DNA from: a bacterium
GTDB taxonomy: Bacteria > RBG-13-61-14 > DATKZS01
Assembly (NCBI GenBank): GCA_963674965.2
Contig: CAXXFL010000007.1
Span: 640,001 to 704,000 of the forward strand
Length of the DNA stretch: 64,000 bases
Reading direction: 5' to 3'
Part shown: positions 1-54,153 of the stretch, one piece after another
How the letters are laid out: each line of letters starts with the position of its first letter
How positions within the stretch are numbered: the stretch's first letter is position 1
Notes under the pieces: generated by a model
Told to the model about the DNA's origin: nothing
Seen by the model: the letters and a program-made list of their open reading frames with translations, nothing else
Database searches by the model: none
Translations under genes and position numbers: made by a program

Positions 1-480
1 GGCCGTCAATAATTCCAATGGACTGATTTTCCTTTTCACTTTGATTTTTCCTCCATTCCTTCCCGCCGGCGTCATGCGCGCTCGTCCTTTTGACAAGCCC
101 TTGTGATTCGCTTAATCACCCCGCGTGAAAGCCAAAATCGATCGCGAAAAACAGGGCCATGCCTATGGCGCAATGGTTTCTTTCATGCTATCTTCCCAAA
201 CAATATATGACAAGCGCCCGGGCCGCGTGGAATTTTTAGGTTTTATAACAATCATCTCCGCCGGGACCGAGGGCAAAGATCAAATGTAAATTATTAATTG
301 CTTCGGACGGCGGCGCGGGAGAGGGGCCGTTGCCTGAGGGTTGGCTTGGCGGCGCCATGGCCGATCCCTTGTCGTTTTCCGAAAAATTGGATCACCAGTC
401 ATTCTTTTGCATCAAAGAGGCTCTGGCATTTTCCGGCGGCCGTTCTTGCCGGCCGAGACGTGACTTAGCGAGGAGCGATC

Positions 481-3400
481 ATGAAGACTGAAGAACTCAA
501 GGCTGGCGTTATAATAATCTGCCTTTCGATCCTGGCCATGGGCGCTATATTCCTTCCCGGCTCTCAGCCGGGGGAAGGCCGTACCCTTGAAGACCCGGCC
601 AATTGCGGCTGCCACCGCGGATACGACGCCGCGGTCGAGCCCATGTACAACTGGCGGGGCTCGATGATGTCCATGTCCGCTCGCGACCCGATTTTCTTCG
701 CCGCCCTGGACCTGGCCAACCACGACCTGGCCGACGCCGGGACCTTTTGCCTGCGCTGCCATTCCCCCTCGGCCCACCAGGCGGGCAGGACCACGCCTCC
801 CGACGGCTCGGCCCTCACGGGCATCGACGTGGAGGGAGTCTCCTGCGACGTCTGCCACGCGCTGGTGGACCCGCTCAGCGCGGAGGGCCAGGCCCTGGCC
901 GATCCCGACGTGACCTCCTACGGCAACGCCATGTGGGTCCTGACGGAGGGGCAGGAAAAACGCGGCCCTTACGACGACGCCGAGGCCAGGCACGTGTGGC
1001 AATACCATGATTTCCAAAGGTCATCCGAGGTCTGCGCCTCCTGCCACGACGTCAGCAATCCCCTTTTATGCGACGCCGGCGACCCCTACAACGTACAGAA
1101 ATGCTTCACCGAGCAGCGCACCTACAGCGAATGGAAAAACAGTTCCTTCTCGTCCATGGGCGAAGCGGGAAACTGCCAGTCGTGCCACATGCCGCACGTG
1201 GCCGACGGCAAGGCCTGCAAGCAGGGATCCATCCGGACTTTCCTGCCGGTCCACCATCAAAACGGCGGCAACTCCTGGGTACCCGACGCCATCGCCTTGT
1301 TGTTCGCGGGCGACAACTCGATCGACTTCGACGCCCTGGCCGACGGTAAAGACCGCGCCATCGCCCTGGTCCAGGACGCCTCGACCCTGGAGAGCTTCGA
1401 CAAGACCGACGGGGGACCGGGCCTCATCTCGGTCCGTATCACCAATTCGACCGGCCACAAGCTGCCCACCGGATACCCGGAGGGACGCCGCATGTGGATC
1501 AACGTTATCGGTTACGACGCGGCCGATCAGCCGGCCTTCGAGTCCGGCGCCTACAACCTGGCCACCGCCGATCTGACCCTCGACTCGCAGGCCAAGGTCT
1601 ACGAGGCCCACTTCGGGGTCGAGCAGGGAGACGGGTCCTGCCTGCCAACCTTCCGCCTGGTCCAGAACAACTGCCTGGAAAAGGACAACCGTATCCCCCC
1701 CCGCGGCTTTACCAACGCGGCCTTCGAGGCGGTGGGCGCGGGTCACGAGCATTACCATTACGAGGACGGCCAGTACTGGGACGACACTCCCTACGCCCTG
1801 CCCCCCGGCGTGGTCCGGGTGGACGTGAACCTTTACTACCAGACGACCACCAGGGAGTATATCGAGTTCCTGGCCGCGGCCGACGGATCGAGCGTTCGCG
1901 GCGCCGAGCTTTTAAGCGCCTTCAACTCGACGAATAAGGCCGCTCCCGTTCTCATGGAAAGCGCGTCCCTCGTCATTGACTCGGACCTGGACGGCATGGG
2001 CAACGCCTGGGAGACGGCCAACGGCCTCGACCCCGGCGACTCGGCCGACGCCGTCCAAGACCTGGACGGCGACAGCCTTTCCAACCTCGAGGAATACCTT
2101 AACGGCACGGACCCGAACCTCGCCGATACCGACGGCGACAACCTGGACGACGGCCAGGAGGTAAACCACTACTTCACCGATCCCCTCAACCCGGACACGG
2201 ACGATGACGGCCTGACCGACGGCCTGGAGGGCAACACCCTCCTCACCAGCCCGCTCGAGTGGGACACGGACTCGGGCGGGGAAGGCGACGGCTCCGAGTA
2301 CAACATGGGCCGAAACCCCCTTGACCCGGACGACGACGCGGAGATAGCCGCCTACGACGCCATATGGACGGCGCCTCGCTGCGTCACGGGCAGGGGCATT
2401 TGCCTGGTCACGGAGGACTTAATCCTCGGCCGCGACACCATGGCCGGCGGACCCGAGCCCAACCAGCCCAATACCATCAGCCTCGATCCCTGTCCCGACG
2501 GGACCACGGGGGATTTCCATTCCGACGAGTCCATCGACCGGATGATCGTGACCGACCTGTCGGGCTCGACCTTTTTCGCGGGCGACACGGTCGAGGTGAC
2601 GGTCGCCCTCTGGTGCTGGACCGACGTGGGCTACGACCAGGTCAACGTTTACAACGGGGACTCGGCGAGCGGCTGGACATACCTTGGCGGCCAGGCCTGT
2701 CCCGGCATCGGGGCCCAGACCCTGTCCGTGGTCGGCCGCCTGGGAGACCACGTGGGGGACCAGTACATCCGGGCCGTCTTCTCCTACGAGTCTCCCCCCT
2801 CGGTATGCGACGCAGGGAGCTACTCCGACCACGACGACGTGGTCATAGCGGTCACGGGCCCCGCCTCCATCGACACGGACGGCGACGGGCTGAGCGATTA
2901 CGACGAATCCACCTATTACCTGACCGACCCGGAGGACCCCGACACGGACGGCGACGGGGCGATCGACTCGGCCGAGATTCTGGAGGGAACGGACCCGCTG
3001 TCCCCCACTGACTTCCTGGCCTTTGTTCCCAGGCTGCTCAATTACCAGGCCCGCCTAAACGAAGCGGACGGCTCTCCGGTGAATGGAGCGCTGAGCATGG
3101 TCTTCTCGATTCACGAGAGCGCCGGCGGCTCGACGGTCCTCTGGCAGGAGGGCTCGACCGTGGACGTGGCCGACGGTATTTTCAGCGTCATGCTGGGAGG
3201 ACAAAGCGCCCTTCCCTCCGATCTTTTCAACGGTGACGACGCCTGGCTGGAGATCGAGGTGGAAGGCGAGGATATGGTCCCCCGCAAACGAGCGGCCGCC
3301 GAGGGATTCTCGCATAACGCCCTGCGCCTCGGCGGGCAAAGGATCGAGTCCGGTACAAAAACCGTAAGCGCGGCGAACCAGTCTAACCTGACCGTCAACG

Positions 3401-3762: not shown

Positions 3763-4737
3763 TCACGCCTCTTTAACCTCCTCCTCGCCCGGCGCCATCT
3801 TCTCTTTCAGCGCGATGACTTTCTCGATGCCCGCCGCGTCGATAATGAGGTTATCCACCACGTCCTCGCTGACGTACTCGGTATTTGCGGCGCCCTCGGT
3901 CTGGCCGCTCGCCTGGTCTCGTTTATCGGGGCCGTCTTTGACCAGTTTCACCTTCAGGTATCCGATCTGGAGACATTTCTTGCACCGGTGAAGCTGGACC
4001 TCCGAGCGCTCTTTCTCCCCGGGAGCGCCAAGTCCCTCCAGGACGTCGTAGTTGCCCGACTCGAGCTCGTAGCGGAACTGGCTTTTGTCCTGGACCGGAC
4101 CCAGCTTAAGAGGCGAGTCGAAAACCGACTCGGCCCATTCCCCGCAATGCTCGCAAAAGGGAGTATACCTGGCCGAGCCGTCGGCGATGGTCACGGACAG
4201 TAGAAGTATCAAAAGGGCCTCGAGAATCCAGGCGATATAAAGCCAAAGGCCCGATGGGGTCCAGCCGAATATTTGCCATGCTCCCGCGTTTCCTATTGAA
4301 ACAATATTTTTGCCAAGCTCAAGAGGGTTGAATATCCAAACGTTCAGCGGCTCTTCCGCGCCGGCGTAAAAGAAATGGACCCACGCCACCCACTGGACAT
4401 AGACTCCCAAGACGCCCGTAATCAAACCGAAAAATGAAGCCAACATGGGCGAGCGGACCTTGCCGGCGGTCACGCCGAAGCTGACGCCGAGTCCAAGTAT
4501 GAATCCGAAAATGAAGCTGATTATAAAGGTAAACGCCTCAAAGGGATTGATATAGGAACCCCATCCATAAGCCGCGCCGCCCAGGAACGCGGCCATGCTT
4601 CCGAATAAAGGCATATAGATCAGGCCAAGGGGCGATATTTTGCCCGAGGGCGTATAATATTTTGAGGGAAGATAGTCGTACTCGGGCACGGCGTAGGTTT
4701 CGGGGTTATAGTGTTTATAATCCTTCACTGGGGCCAT
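3763..4737 (-). CDS. Hypothetical multi-pass membrane protein with C-terminal CxxC..CxxC (zinc-ribbon-like) region
   Basis: 324 aa, several TM segments, CEHC and CKKC motifs. Confidence 0.7.
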   Translation of the reverse strand: MAPVKDYKHYNPETYAVPEYDYLPSKYYTPSGKISPLGLIYMPLFGSMAAFLGGAAYGWGSYINPFEAFTFIISFIFGFILGLGVSFGVTAGKVRSPMLASFFGLITGVLGVYVQWVAWVHFFYAGAEEPLNVWIFNPLELGKNIVSIGNAGAWQIFGWTPSGLWLYIAWILEALLILLLSVTIADGSARYTPFCEHCGEWAESVFDSPLKLGPVQDKSQFRYELESGNYDVLEGLGAPGEKERSEVQLHRCKKCLQIGYLKVKLVKDGPDKRDQASGQTEGAANTEYVSEDVVDNLIIDAAGIEKVIALKEKMAPGEEEVKEA

Positions 4738-4976
4738 CCTTCATTTCTCGAAATTGCAAAAAATGGTAATGCTTTGGAATAATTATAGCACGAACAAGCT
4801 TATAGCCAAGCTGTCAATTACGCTTCCACCCCGGCTAAAAGGCCGTTTCTTCAGTATAAATGCCTGATAATAAAAGATTAAAAAAAATTATTCCGCCGCG
4901 CCGCGATTGATAAAGAACTTTATAAAACGGGTTCATTTTTTGAATCCTTATTCTTCCGGCAAACATCTTAAACATA

Positions 4977-5050
4977 GATTCCCAAAAACTTGCCAAACCT
5001 TTTCATCATTACCGAGTCCCGGAAGCAGCGCCGGGACTCGGTAATTTTTT
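4977..5050 (+). ncRNA. Putative sRNA unit 1 (pyrimidine-rich seed plus terminator)
   Basis: CAAACCTTTTCATCATT at 4994-5010; perfect 15-bp stem 5008-5022/5031-5045 followed by a T-run; 5' end estimated. Confidence 0.5.
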
Positions 5051-5061
5051 GTATAAGGCGC

Positions 5062-5089
5062 GGAACTTTTCCGCCTCGGCGCGGTCTGA
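5062..5089 (+). promoter_or_regulatory. ECF/sigmaE-type promoter
   Basis: GGAACTT-N15-GTCTGA. Confidence 0.6.
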
Positions 5090-5096
5090 ATATTTG

Positions 5097-5169
5097 ATCC
5101 CTCCAAAATGCCAACCCTTTCTTCTTGAAGCGTCTTCGGAAACGGAGGCGCTTCTCACTTTTTTTTTTT
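5097..5169 (+). ncRNA. Putative sRNA unit 2
   Basis: Leader related to unit 1 (GATCCCTCCAAAATGCCAACCCTTTCTTC); 12-bp stem with two G.U pairs and a GAAA loop at 5127-5154, then T11. Confidence 0.5.
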
Positions 5170-5180
5170 GCACTTTTTTG

Positions 5181-5208
5181 GGAACCTATTTTCACGGCGG
5201 GCGTCTTA
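5181..5208 (+). promoter_or_regulatory. ECF/sigmaE-type promoter
   Basis: GGAACCT-N15-GTCTTA, same spacing as the 5062 copy. Confidence 0.6.
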
Positions 5209-5215
5209 CAATTAA

Positions 5216-5277
5216 TAGCCAAATACAAACCTTTTCATCATTCTCCTAATCCCCGGTCGCCAAGCCGGGGATTTTTT
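5216..5277 (+). ncRNA. Putative sRNA unit 3
   Basis: CAAACCTTTTCATCATT at 5226-5242 (identical to unit 1) plus CTCCT; stem AATCCCCGG/CCGGGGATT plus T-run. Confidence 0.5.
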
Positions 5278-5317
5278 ATGGCCCACCCGATCGTTACCTA
5301 CTCCTATAATATTTTTC

Positions 5318-5346
5318 TTGGCAAAAGGAACCAGTCCGCCTATAAT
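5318..5346 (+). promoter_or_regulatory. sigma70-type promoter for the aminotransferase
   Basis: TTGGCA-N17-TATAAT, followed by an AGGAGG RBS. Confidence 0.55.
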
Positions 5347-5366
5347 CTGACCAAAGGGTAAAGGAG

Positions 5367-6605
5367 GTGGTCATGGCCGAGATAAATCTGACTAAATCTT
5401 ATGAGCTTTTCGAGCGGGCCCAGAGTATTTCTCCAGGTGGATACCAGGCTCCTCAAAACCCCTATTTTTATGGTTACGGCTCTTCTCCCGCTTTCCTGGC
5501 CAGGGGCAAAGGGTGCAGGGTCTGGGACGTTGACGGAAACGAATACATCGATTTCCTATGCGGCCTTGGAGCCATAGTGCTGGGCATGGGCAATCGGGTG
5601 GTGGACGAGGCCGCTCGCTCCCAGATGGAAAAAGGCGATTTAATGACCTTTCCCTCCTCCAAGTGGGTCGAACTGGCCCAGTACCTGGTGGACAGGATAC
5701 CGGGCATGGACTGGGCCATCTTCGCCAAGAACGGCTCGGACGCCACCACCTACATGACCCGCGTGGCCCGGGCCCACACGGGAAGGTCAGGCATAGCCAT
5801 GATAAGTCACGCCTATCACGGTTTCCATTACTGGTGCTCGGGCCCGGACCCGTCCATACCCCCCGAGTACCAGTCGGGCGTGTATTCCTTCCATTTCAAT
5901 CAGGCCCGAGAAATCGAGCGCCTGGTGGAAGAAAAAAAAGGAGAAATAGCCGCCGTGATACTGACCCCGGTGAGGCATGACGTGGCCAGCGCGCAGGTCC
6001 TTCCTACCCCCGAGTTCCTGGCCGCGGTGAGGAATATTTGCGACCGGGAGGGCATGCTCCTTCTCCTGGACGACGTGCGCTGCGGCTTCAGGTATCACGA
6101 GAACGGCTCGGCCGAGTATTTTGGCGTCGAGCCCGACATGATAGCCTTTGGCAAGGCCATGTCCAACGGTTACCCGATCTCGGCGGCCATGGGCAGGAGG
6201 AATCTTATGGAGGCGGCGCGAAAATTCATGTTCATTGGCACTCATTTTTACAGCGCCTCTCCCATGGCGGCGGCGCTGGCGTGCCTCGAGGAGATCAAAG
6301 CCTCGGGCGCGGTCGAGCATATGCTGAAAATGGGCGAGTTATTAAAGGAGGGCATTCTGGACGCGGCCGGGGAAAACGGCTTCAAGATCGATTACTCGGG
6401 CCATCCCACCATGCCCCTTATGATGTTCGAGGATGACCCGATATTCGAGAAGGCCAGACGCTTTAGCGCCCTGGCCCTGGAAAGAGGAGTGATCATCCAC
6501 CCCATCCACAACTGGTTCATCTGCGCGGCCCACGGTAAGGATGACGTTGAGCGGGCCGTCTCGGCCCTGGCCGATTGTTTCAGCGTGATGGCCGGCGAGG
6601 ACTGA
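5367..6605 (+). CDS. Class III PLP aminotransferase (glutamate-1-semialdehyde aminomutase-like)
   Basis: GKGCRVWDVDGNEYID, KNGSDAT, DDVRCGFR, FGKAMSNGYP motifs. Confidence 0.85.
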   Translation: MVMAEINLTKSYELFERAQSISPGGYQAPQNPYFYGYGSSPAFLARGKGCRVWDVDGNEYIDFLCGLGAIVLGMGNRVVDEAARSQMEKGDLMTFPSSKWVELAQYLVDRIPGMDWAIFAKNGSDATTYMTRVARAHTGRSGIAMISHAYHGFHYWCSGPDPSIPPEYQSGVYSFHFNQAREIERLVEEKKGEIAAVILTPVRHDVASAQVLPTPEFLAAVRNICDREGMLLLLDDVRCGFRYHENGSAEYFGVEPDMIAFGKAMSNGYPISAAMGRRNLMEAARKFMFIGTHFYSASPMAAALACLEEIKASGAVEHMLKMGELLKEGILDAAGENGFKIDYSGHPTMPLMMFEDDPIFEKARRFSALALERGVIIHPIHNWFICAAHGKDDVERAVSALADCFSVMAGED

Positions 6606-49243: not shown

Positions 49244-49344
49244 TCTTTTAACTTCTTCAACGCGCGCGTCCGTTTCATTTTCCACTTGAAGTTCCCATAC
49301 CGGCCTTTGACTGCCGGGGAAGGCCGAGCTAAAATATTGTCAAG

Positions 49345-49502
49345 CGTCAAGGTTAGCCCCTCGGGGCTGGAAAGGGAATCCGGTGAAAATCCGGAGCTGT
49401 CCCGCAACTGTAATGGAGGAGCCCGGCCCGAAACGCCACTGGGATTATCCTGGGAAGGCGTGGCCGTAAGCGAAGATACCTGAGCCAGGAAACCTGCCTT
49501 GC
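49345..49502 (+). promoter_or_regulatory. Cobalamin riboswitch
   Basis: AGGTT..AAAGGGAATCCGGTGAAAATCCGGAGCTGTCCCGCAACTGTAA..GCCACTG..GGGAAGGC..GAGCCAGGAAACCTGCC. Confidence 0.95.
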
Positions 49503-49539
49503 CGCCAATGTCCTGAACCTCGCGTGAAAGGAGAAGGCA

Positions 49540-53118: not shown

Positions 53119-54153
53119 CTACCTTCCGCCGCCCATGTTTTTACCTGAGAGTGAGAAAGCCATATCAATAAATGGCCCGATTGATTTTCCGATGATGGCA
53201 GTGCCCGTATCATGAGGGGACGGGAAATTGAATTTACTTTTCGCCGCGCCATTCAGGGCAAAATCATGACCTTCAATATTGACAATGCAGAAGAGGCTGT
53301 CCCGACATTCGAGAATCACTTCATCAAAACGGAAGGGCCAGTCTCCTTCATAGTCTTGTTTTGAGATCAGCGCCGAAGGCCACGGGCTGCCTAAGACATC
53401 CTCTTTTTTCCTCTGAGTCCACTTATCCTTTGACTGTTGAAAATACTTGGCTGAACGCCGATAGTCGATTGTGCCGAACTCCTCATCCTTCATCTTGATA
53501 AAATCAGAGACTATCGAGGACATCTGCTGAAGTCTTCCGCCATGCCCGCCCAGAGTGAATTGCATCGTAATCGCCCTGCACAATCTTTCCAGCTTTGAAA
53601 TAATCTTAGCGTTCACTTTCGGATAATAGTCTCGATACAGGGCATCCATTGAGTCCCCGGTGATGTAGGGGCTTGGGTCTTCAATCGCTTTTTCAAGTTC
53701 CTCCCACTCCGCTTTTGTTTTGATGGGCGGATGCGAACTTCCCGTAACGATGTCCAGGTTGTAATACCGGGCCTTCTGACCAAACTCCGACAGGACGTGA
53801 ATGATTTTATCCAGCAAAGGGTCCGTCTTCAGATAGTCAAGATCATCGATTAAGAGCGGCTTATCGTTTGTGGAAAAATAGTCGGCCACGAGATTTTGCT
53901 TTAGTTTCTCCAAATCATGCCCAAGTTTGATGAGAAATTTCGTGTCTGGAAATTTTCCAGTTCTCGCTTCATGGACAAGGCAGAAGAAACATTTTATGAG
54001 GCGTTCAAAACCACTAGCGAGCAACAGTTGCGGAAGATGAAAGAAATCATCGCCCATGCGGATTTCCTGCAATTCACCGAACCCGGAGACAATCAGGTTC
54101 TTGGCAAGTTCCAGTTCCTCGATGAGGCACGTGGTTTTCATTGAATCGTTCAT
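53119..54153 (-). CDS. Low-GC HEPN-like hypothetical protein
   Basis: SGFERLIK, GHDLEKL, ARYYNLD pattern; GC clearly lower than flanks. Confidence 0.6.
   Translation of the reverse strand: MNDSMKTTCLIEELELAKNLIVSGFGELQEIRMGDDFFHLPQLLLASGFERLIKCFFCLVHEARTGKFPDTKFLIKLGHDLEKLKQNLVADYFSTNDKPLLIDDLDYLKTDPLLDKIIHVLSEFGQKARYYNLDIVTGSSHPPIKTKAEWEELEKAIEDPSPYITGDSMDALYRDYYPKVNAKIISKLERLCRAITMQFTLGGHGGRLQQMSSIVSDFIKMKDEEFGTIDYRRSAKYFQQSKDKWTQRKKEDVLGSPWPSALISKQDYEGDWPFRFDEVILECRDSLFCIVNIEGHDFALNGAAKSKFNFPSPHDTGTAIIGKSIGPFIDMAFSLSGKNMGGGR

Follow-up and report, generated by a model that had tools for sequence, protein, structure and literature searches.

The window examined here is a 64,000-nt stretch of a bacterial genome from an order without a cultured member (GenBank assembly GCA_963674965.2, contig CAXXFL010000007.1, positions 640,001 to 704,000), and the element under study is a tandem array of three candidate small RNA (sRNA) genes at positions 4941-5279. 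The array occupies a 635-nt intergenic gap, in which the three units lie head to tail. It is flanked on the left by a membrane-protein gene on the minus strand (3763-4737), which has no Pfam match, and on the right by a class-III aminotransferase gene on the plus strand (5373-6602, PF00202). Each of the three units comprises a promoter motif of the extracytoplasmic function (ECF) type, an unstructured leader of ~30 nt rich in C, T and A, and a strong terminator.

All features of the units are read on the plus strand. The promoter-like motif of unit 1 at 4942-4970, GAATCCT (4942-4948)-N16-ATCTTA (4965-4970), is a weak match with a -35 element that lacks the GGAAC core, and it stands in register with the promoters of the other copies. 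The predicted sRNA of ~75 nt (4977-5052, with its 5' end placed from the -10 box) folds at -28.5 kcal/mol (z -5.2). Its core, GCCAAACCTTTTCATCAT (4992-5009), is perfectly complementary over 18 nt to the start-codon region of a giant secreted-protein gene in the same genome (G000:C4:330923, where G000 is the genome with the window and C1, C2 and so on are its contigs), and its intrinsic terminator (5008-5051) consists of a 15-pair stem (5008-5045) and then TTTTTT. Unit 2 carries the ECF-type promoter GGAACTT (5062-5068)-N15-GTCTGA (5084-5089) at 5062-5089, with the same architecture as the motif GGAACTT-N15-GTCTTG upstream of an anti-sigma gene discussed below. It is followed by a predicted sRNA of ~74 nt (5096-5170, fold z -3.7) with a diverged core, CCAACCCTTTCTTCTT, at 5111-5126, and by an intrinsic terminator at 5127-5169 with a 12-pair stem (5127-5154) and a T run (5159-5169). 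In unit 3, the ECF-type promoter GGAACCT (5181-5187)-N15-GTCTTA (5203-5208) at 5181-5208 precedes a predicted sRNA of ~64 nt (5215-5279, fold z -3.8). The core of this unit, CAAACCTTTTCATCATT at 5226-5242, provides a 16-nt perfect complement of the giant-protein start, and the intrinsic terminator at 5248-5279 has a 10-pair stem (5248-5273) and then TTTTTT.

The 17-mer CAAACCTTTTCATCATT is found in unit 1 (4994-5010) and unit 3 (5226-5242) and nowhere else in the 6.5-Mb genome, and, relative to its siblings, the core of unit 2 has three substitutions and one indel. The promoter motif GGAACYT-N15/16-GTCT has three matches in the window (5062, 5181 and 54087 minus), as against a shuffle mean of 0.18, with none of 100 shuffles reaching three. 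The match outside the array, at 54087-54112 on the minus strand, lies inside a coding region by crude gene calls. Scanning of positions 4600-5500 returned six terminator sites, compared with 1.3 +/- 1.5 in shuffled sequence; three of these are strong, each with a T run. Each predicted RNA consists of ~30 unpaired 5' nucleotides and one hairpin, and for each unit 0 of 200 shuffles folded as well. Open reading frames (ORFs) of 35-86 amino acids (aa) overlap the array region, and a gene caller based on codon usage called no gene between 4738 and 5366.

The original prediction, made from the letters of the window, had described three units of ~120 bp, each with a promoter-like motif, a leader and a terminator, a weaker promoter in unit 1, an exact 17-mer in units 1 and 3 with a variant in unit 2, and no credible ORF. 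All of these elements were recovered: the -35 box of unit 1 (GAATCC) departs from the GGAAC core, the 17-mer and its variant (5111-5126) are in place, and no gene was called in 4738-5366, although short ORFs overlap it. Its further notion of a family of three siblings needs amendment, as the sibling family stands, whereas the genome holds four copies, not three, and the units are not equivalent, given the poor promoter of unit 1 and the diverged core of unit 2. The core of unit 2 has drifted and may be either decaying or retargeted. A near-consensus promoter of the sigma-70 type, TTGGCA-17-TATAAT (5318-5346, plus strand, 11/12 matches), lies ahead of the aminotransferase gene, so that transcription of this gene would not require read-through from the sRNA units.

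Conservation and novelty of the RNA family

The host genome is 6.5 Mb in size and 97.6% complete. A fourth copy was recovered from it (G000:C7:89267-89380, minus strand, far from the window) by three separate whole-genome scans, namely for core and terminator with no promoter required, for promoter and terminator, and with a covariance model. It consists of GGAACCT-N15-GTCTAT, then AAATCCCCAATAAAAAAGCCAAACCTTTTCATCA, then a terminator of -33 kcal/mol, and it brings the genome's total to four copies in 6.5 Mb. The copies are siblings in that they are homologous genes, each with a promoter and terminator of its own, three in tandem and one elsewhere. At C6:65682-65738 on the plus strand (locus L023), GGAACC-N-GTCT is followed by ACAAACCTTTTCATC without a terminator, which is either a decayed fifth copy or a chance match.

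The phylum was sampled with 13 species genomes, 11 from the host's order and two from a sister order; genomes of relatives are labelled G001, G002 and so on, and the assemblies of G003 and G009 are fragmented (240 and 400 contigs). A BLAST-level DNA search with positions 4880-5300 against 40 relatives returned short matches at chance level only, some of which were later recognised as the cores of true copies. A loose pattern of promoter and core located copies in two other genera of the host's family. The covariance model, R1, was then aligned from eight units of three genomes; since it includes the promoter, it is a detection model and not a pure RNA model. R1 identified new copies in seven further genomes, with E values from 8e-12 to 9e-7, and scored unit 1, one of its training sequences, at 87.5 bits. 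With the training genomes counted, the family is present in 10 of 11 genomes of the order and 10 of 13 of the phylum. R1 had no match in either of the two sister-order genomes, nor in one genome of the order, which is 87% complete and in 820 contigs. Tandem pairs occur in G001 and in G003, where the pair lies upstream of groES, and the other relatives carry single copies. The neighbouring genes vary between copies and genomes and include aminotransferase, glycosyltransferase, groES and thioredoxin-like genes.

A pattern of the full architecture was run over 185,579 species genomes and yielded 11 loci. Seven of these (eight copies) have a hairpin of -20 to -35 kcal/mol directly after the core; they come from uncultured metagenome-assembled genomes, and their copies are sequence-identical to those in the phylum's genomes. 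The remaining four loci belong to unrelated taxa and have no such hairpin, with ~6 chance matches expected by our own calculation. In metagenome contigs, the same pattern found 23 loci, of which 16 have the hairpin, one is cut by a contig end and six are without it.

An alignment of 22 distinct copies, fitted to the model, reveals two modes of conservation. In the hairpin, the sequence differs and the stem is kept: all 12 pairs have changes on both sides, and 89.7% of the cells are paired, compared with 56.8% in shuffles (0 of 500 reach the observed value) and at most 62.7% when the partners are slid. In the leader, the core CC(A/G)A(A/G)CC(C/T)TTTCATC is nearly invariant, and its conservation is that of nucleotides, lacking the synonymous changes that would be tolerated in a peptide-coding sequence. 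The -35 element GGAAC is present in all aligned copies except unit 1 (GAATC) and one copy of G003 (GAAAC). A core-only search, with no promoter in the query, recovered 11 sRNA genes, every one of which carries the promoter motif; this lifts the bias of promoter selection for these 11 genome copies, not for the metagenome copies.

Comparison with Rfam 15, which includes MicA, RybB, MicL, VrrA and LhrC, gave no family at its gathering score over the array region. Thirteen sub-threshold matches were listed for positions 4700-5450 at E <= 10, the top ones being mir-4782 (24.7 bits, threshold 100) and PsrR1 (21.3 bits, threshold 42). PsrR1, GadY and the other weak matches were dismissed, all being far under their thresholds. 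The window's sole gathering-level Rfam match is a cobalamin riboswitch (RF00174, 124 bits) at 49333-49515 on the plus strand. Among the papers searched, none dealt with sRNAs of the host lineage.

A second, different sRNA-like unit was noticed alongside the family. Its parts are a GAAACCTTTCC-type box, two hairpins and a conserved GCCCCTCCTTTT(CC)TCGG stretch, possibly an anti-Shine-Dalgarno sequence; it was seen at L048 (G008), L049 (G006), L045 (G009) and L054 (G007). It is in tandem with the array family in three genomes and lies directly downstream of a family copy at L048 and L049. The host genome has one exact occurrence of GCCCCTCCTTTT, outside any such unit.

Complementarity to the start of a giant secreted-protein gene

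In eight genomes, the core GCCAAACCYTTTCATC is exactly complementary, over 12-26 nt, to the region around the start codon of a single orthologous gene, being antisense to (G)ATGAAA(A/G)GGTTTGG. The target search was performed with a 15-mer core complement in the 13 genomes, with at most one mismatch allowed. It produced 17 sites with no mismatch, which are the 11 sRNA genes and six start codons of homologous secreted-protein genes. All six starts, that of G001 among them, sit behind a GAAAGGAG ribosome-binding site, and the six proteins begin with MKRFG or MKGFG, followed by a signal peptide and then by dockerin-like DxNGNGxID repeats. Two further targets were identified in G002 and G004, where the sRNA core reads CCAAGCC and the target GGCTTGG. 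The eight proteins are homologous from residue 1 in 28 of 28 pairs, at 27-69% identity. In the host genome, the target protein has 2056 aa, with a signal peptide and long Cys/Asp-rich repeats, and it looks dockerin/Ig-like. A language-model look-up returned a Dockerin_1/Big_2-like assignment for it, which serves as a lead only.

RNA and mRNA change together in several lineages. Between an RNA and its cognate target, the longest perfect run is 16-20 nt in G000, 18-20 nt in G001, 22 nt in each of G002, G006 and G008, 26 nt in G004 and 20 nt in G005, with G007 taken up below; pairs taken from genomes whose core variants differ give 6-12 nt. Each of the following differences at the target start is mirrored in the RNA of the same genome. 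At codon 3, AGG versus GGG in the mRNA is matched in the sRNA (AAAAGG/CCUUUU versus AAAGGG/CCCUUU), and at codon 4, UUU versus CUU is matched likewise (GGUUUGG/CCAAACC versus GGCUUGG/CCAAGCC). Matched changes continue through codons 5-7 (GGC-UUU, GGC-UAU or GGA-CGG-CU), including GGACGGCU/AGCCGUCC and GGCUAU/AUAGCC, and into the 3-5 bases before the AUG, with CGGGAUG/CAUCCCG and ACGUGAUG/CAUCACGU.

Within the host genome, the longest non-self match of unit 1 (18 nt), unit 3 (16 nt) and the fourth copy (20 nt) is the target start in each case. Of 8797 candidate start regions ordered by duplex energy, it is among the first two loci. As a control, porin orthologues that also start with MKK or MKR were taken; they pair over only 5-11 nt with their own sRNAs, and at the 10 loci of relatives over 5-10 nt. 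The metagenome copies with AGCCACCC predict a target starting MKGFGW, and protein database searches returned one protein, truncated at its N-terminus.

Several observations concern genes related to the target or other possible partners. A paralogue of the target lies at contig 1, 208915-210414 (plus strand) of G000; it is 73% identical over 503 residues, contains one in-frame TAG, and its start, GTGATGAAAAGGTTAGACGG, retains 13 nt complementary to the core. The target's N-terminal domain is weakly shared by ~25 more giant ORFs in G000. On contig 6 at ~104560 (minus strand), the start of an 874-aa secreted-protein gene pairs with the core and the 5' AAUCCCC of the fourth copy and unit 1. This gene has the top duplex energy (z -5.5), and its ATG-AAA-AGG does not share the reading frame of the long ORF, perhaps because of a TTG start or an assembly frameshift. 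The best genomic matches of unit 2 are intragenic, 16 nt and 15 nt long, in a histidine kinase and one other gene. The 16-nt perfect complement lies on contig 2 at 226807 (plus strand) in a histidine-kinase-like coding region, with ~0.05 such matches expected by chance by our own estimate.

Sigma factor, proposed circuit and rival explanations

About 10 ECF-type sigma genes are encoded in the host genome, and autoregulated ECF operons carry their own promoter. The candidate sigma gene lies on contig 7 (771682-772473, minus strand); its best NCBIfam match is TIGR02939, RpoE, at 159.6 bits, under the cut-off of 236 bits, with SigW next. The downstream gene encodes its partner, a protein with a zf-HC2 domain, which reads from its sequence as an anti-sigma factor with one membrane segment. 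In this operon, GGAACTT-N15-GTCTTG lies 47 nt upstream of the anti-sigma gene and GGCACTT-N15-GTCAAA upstream of the sigma gene. The pattern G[GA][AC]AC[CT]-N15-17-[GA]TC[TA] was found at the orthologous sigma/anti-sigma operon in 8 of 11 genomes, with ~0.07 chance matches per locus by our own estimate. It is placed upstream of the sigma gene in G006, G007, G008 and G009, and between the two genes in G000, G002, G003 and G004. Given ECF autoregulation, the recurrence of the motif at this operon is read as the signature of that sigma factor, and GGAACYT-N15/16-(G/A)TC is probably the RpoE-like sigma's own promoter. The gene for BamA was found in the host genome, so the organism has an outer membrane.

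Near the sigma operon, a core-like GAAGCCAAACCCTT after the anti-sigma gene was rejected as a chance match, since it occurs in two of 11 sigma loci and a hairpin follows only in G000. In G000 (L009, ~450-510, minus strand), a G+C-rich hairpin lacking a T run comes after the core-resembling GGGAAGCCAAACCCTT, and this arrangement is not conserved at the sigma loci in relatives. Two repeats inflate naive genome-wide counts of the promoter motif. One is GGAACTCGGGCCGGTACTTCATGGTCT, identical at ~30 sites in G000 (e.g., C2:556, C6:332096 and C7:637128) inside apparent insertion-sequence gene copies, and the other is GGAACTATCTCAAGGACTGGCGTCT, with ~12 occurrences.

Read together, the gene anatomy, the conservation of the family, the covariation of its hairpin, the promoter motif common with the sigma operon and the co-varying target complementarity point to a candidate envelope-stress circuit. 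On balance, we hold it probable that an sRNA family with the promoter of an envelope-stress sigma factor pairs with the mRNA start of the giant secreted protein and represses its translation under stress. As one part of this joint explanation, and on the same footing, the three units would be independent sRNA genes of ~64-75 nt and members of a family restricted, within the searches made, to a single order of an uncultured candidate phylum. We infer that the RpoE-like sigma drives the units, that envelope stress is the signal and that repression is the outcome. In this proposed circuit, a membrane-spanning zf-HC2 anti-sigma factor would hold the RpoE/SigW-like sigma factor; envelope stress sensed at the anti-sigma factor would free the sigma, and the sRNAs would be made. 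Their core, GCCAAACCYUUUCAUC, would pair with ~-5 to +20 of the giant-protein mRNA. The ribosome footprint takes in ~-5 to +20 around the AUG, so a duplex over the start codon should block ribosome binding, and with it initiation, probably followed by mRNA decay. The outcome would be a lower load of a very large export substrate.

Hfq does not appear to be involved in this pairing. Hfq (PF17209) had no match in the 97.6%-complete host genome in a search that matched 5 of 14 control genomes and was aimed at Hfq alone among chaperones. The long contiguous complement would fit chaperone-independent pairing.

A number of points weigh against the circuit as drawn. On the side of the RNAs, transcription, 5' ends and stress induction of the units are predictions from sequence, a look-up of sequence sets with positions 4700-5500 returned two DNA contig sets of one study and no RNA set, the -35 box of unit 1 is poor (GAATCC), and the hairpin counts come from an alignment fitted to the model and thus leaning towards structure. 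Because the promoter was part of the model and of the collection patterns alike, copies found with them were partly selected for it. On the side of the target, the core of unit 2 pairs over only 8 nt with the giant-protein start, and the longest cognate run in G007 is 12 nt, or 17 when the sequences are read with one G-U pair. Candidate sites were read in G003 and G009, two of the 10 sRNA-bearing genomes, and no orthologous start with a complement was found there; the target protein of G000 has no Pfam or NCBIfam family match. On the side of the sigma factor, the pattern had no match at 3 of 11 sigma loci (G001, G005 and G011), of which G001 shows by eye GGAACAT-N16-GTCATT, with one mismatch, and G005 and G011 show none; the shared motif is all that singles out this sigma among the ~10 ECF genes.

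The most serious rival, to which we would give a minor share of the probability, also takes the RNAs as real, with the giant protein merely the best-matching target of a family that would dampen many exported proteins starting Met-Lys-Arg, units 2 and 3 diverging towards, e.g., a lipoprotein or porin. The invariant CCUUUUCAU is antisense to AUG-AAA-AGG (Met-Lys-Arg), and many genomic occurrences of AACCTTTTCA are antisense to start codons of genes with signal-peptide-like N-termini (as read by eye). A 616-aa lipoprotein gene (G000:C3:194779) has complements of 14-17 nt; its orthologues within the host's family keep ATGATGAAA(A/G)GGTT, and the variant of G003 fits that genome's own CCCTTT copy. 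However, G005 and G007 lack the lipoprotein complement, G002 has a weaker one, and the gene was set aside as a conserved target, its complement being limited to the host's family. For unit 3, the highest-ranked prediction is a Porin_O_P gene (C1:17665, z -5.7), yet its orthologues in relatives make only short runs with their own sRNAs (5-10 nt), and it too was rejected as a conserved target. Beyond the 9-nt core, co-variation was seen with the giant-protein gene only. In a fuller version of this rival, which we regard as unlikely to a similar degree, the RNAs would limit the secretion load without Hfq by recognising the first codons of signal peptides; beyond the giant protein, they would throttle exported proteins starting Met-Lys-Arg, and units 2 and 3 would be evolving towards new targets (lipoprotein, porin). 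If true, an uncultured phylum would have arrived on its own at a sigma-E-type RNA arm of the envelope-stress response, one whose recognition rule depends on the export signal itself.

The remaining alternatives question the promoter, the RNA or the strand. With the sRNA genes and the giant-mRNA pairing left standing, the promoters might be constitutive or read by another ECF sigma, and the link to envelope stress would be wrong; we judge this improbable. The genome encodes ~10 ECF-type sigma factors, related ECF groups share AAC-type -35 boxes, the -35 boxes of unit 1 and one G003 copy are degenerate, and the sigma-operon promoters often show GTCA in place of the (G/A)TCT of the sRNA promoters. 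Against this, the motif stands with the same spacing at the sigma/anti-sigma operon in 8 of 11 genomes, no such motif was seen in the 250 nt upstream of any of 11 sigma-like genes of G000, and in G002 and G004 both sRNA and operon promoters have GTCA. It would be a good deal more surprising still if there were no trans-acting RNAs and the units were promoter/terminator debris, leaders or insulators acting in cis on the adjacent genes, or a small repeat of intergenic regions. Unit 3 does lie only 94 nt upstream of the aminotransferase gene, and discrete transcripts of the units are known as predictions only; but neighbouring genes differ between copies and genomes, each unit has a strong terminator of its own, the downstream gene has its own sigma-70-like promoter, only four copies exist in 6.5 Mb, and an order-wide core co-varying with a distant gene is not expected of debris. 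Least credible of all is a product of the minus strand, either a short MKRFG peptide or inverted, functionless leftovers of the giant gene's 5' end. Read in reverse complement, most copies do show ATG-AAA-AGG-TTT-GGC with a short open frame of 9 to >30 codons (hand translation), and the fourth copy has GGAGG 4 nt upstream of the minus-strand ATG. These frames, however, are of unequal length and extend into the promoter, unit 2 lacks a minus-strand ATG, most copies have no ribosome-binding site, the conserved codons show no synonymous variation, promoters and T runs are found on the plus strand only, and the likeness to the giant gene is limited to ~20 nt. The peptide was rejected on the frame lengths, the missing ATG and ribosome-binding sites, the lack of synonymous variation and the plus-strand-only signals.

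The reading proposed at the outset, of ECF-sigma-driven sibling sRNAs that act on envelope-protein mRNAs, is thus supported as a prediction. The family is indeed unannotated, with no gathering-level Rfam match; promoter and core recur in 10 of 11 genomes of the order and in metagenome contigs, and the covariance model from relatives and the hairpin covariation bear out the character of an RNA gene. The probable cognate ECF sigma, sought by a motif scan, is that of the RpoE-like sigma/anti-sigma operon, where the motif recurs. As for repression of envelope mRNAs, a conserved and co-varying complement was found at the start of one secreted-protein gene, and repression would be its consequence.

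Relation to known envelope-stress sRNAs

In function, the array family comes closest to MicL-Lpp, the RybB/MicA/MicV group and LhrC-LapB, and it belongs to none of these families. RybB, MicA, VrrA and MicV combine a GGAAC-type ECF promoter, a short single-stranded 5' seed and one terminator hairpin, and they repress envelope mRNAs at the start codon. They act with short seeds on many porin mRNAs and depend on Hfq. The units of the array have the same architecture. The two groups are not homologous, however, and no Rfam family matches. The array family has a predicted 12-26-nt duplex with one conserved target, and its porin pairing is not conserved. Their hosts are Gammaproteobacteria, whereas the host of the array belongs to an uncultured phylum. 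These four are described as sigma-E-dependent sRNAs of enterobacteria and Vibrio (PMC6694218).

The array family and MicL have no sequence or Rfam relationship. MicL works with Hfq, and its target is a small lipoprotein, whereas the predicted target here is a 2056-aa secreted protein without a known family. MicL of E. coli is reported to be a sigma-E-dependent sRNA that represses lpp at the level of translation (PMC4102768). It resembles the array family, for which these traits are predicted from sequence, in control by an envelope-stress ECF sigma, near-dedication to one costly exported protein and pairing at the start region; it differs in being made from within the cutC coding sequence and processed, whereas the array RNAs would be free-standing multicopy intergenic genes (PMC4102768). 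No LhrC family was among the Rfam matches of the array region.

The LhrC copies of Listeria monocytogenes are also arranged in tandem. They are under LisRK two-component control, not that of an ECF sigma, and their host is Gram-positive. LhrC1-5 are reported to be multicopy envelope-stress sRNAs that bind the mRNA of the adhesin LapB directly and impede its translation, with Hfq not required (PMC4132741). They share with the array family multicopy siblings, a link to envelope stress and, as predicted for the array family, the mRNA of a large surface-associated protein as target; they differ in having three redundant CU-rich pairing sites, compared with one long contiguous start-codon complement (PMC4132741).

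The RNA family is new and its target is readable from co-variation, but the regulatory principle is already established. Co-change of RNA and mRNA over lineages whose target proteins are only ~30% identical is unusually direct comparative evidence for an sRNA-target pair. To our knowledge, only a few cultured Proteobacteria have had the RNA arms of their ECF envelope-stress responses described in detail. For an order without a cultured member, a comparable circuit can here be read, as a prediction, from sequence alone: a sigma factor with its membrane anti-sigma factor, sRNAs in several copies and a single exported target. The family adds a new RNA to Rfam-type annotation of metagenomes and offers a candidate, testable regulator for a giant surface or secreted protein.

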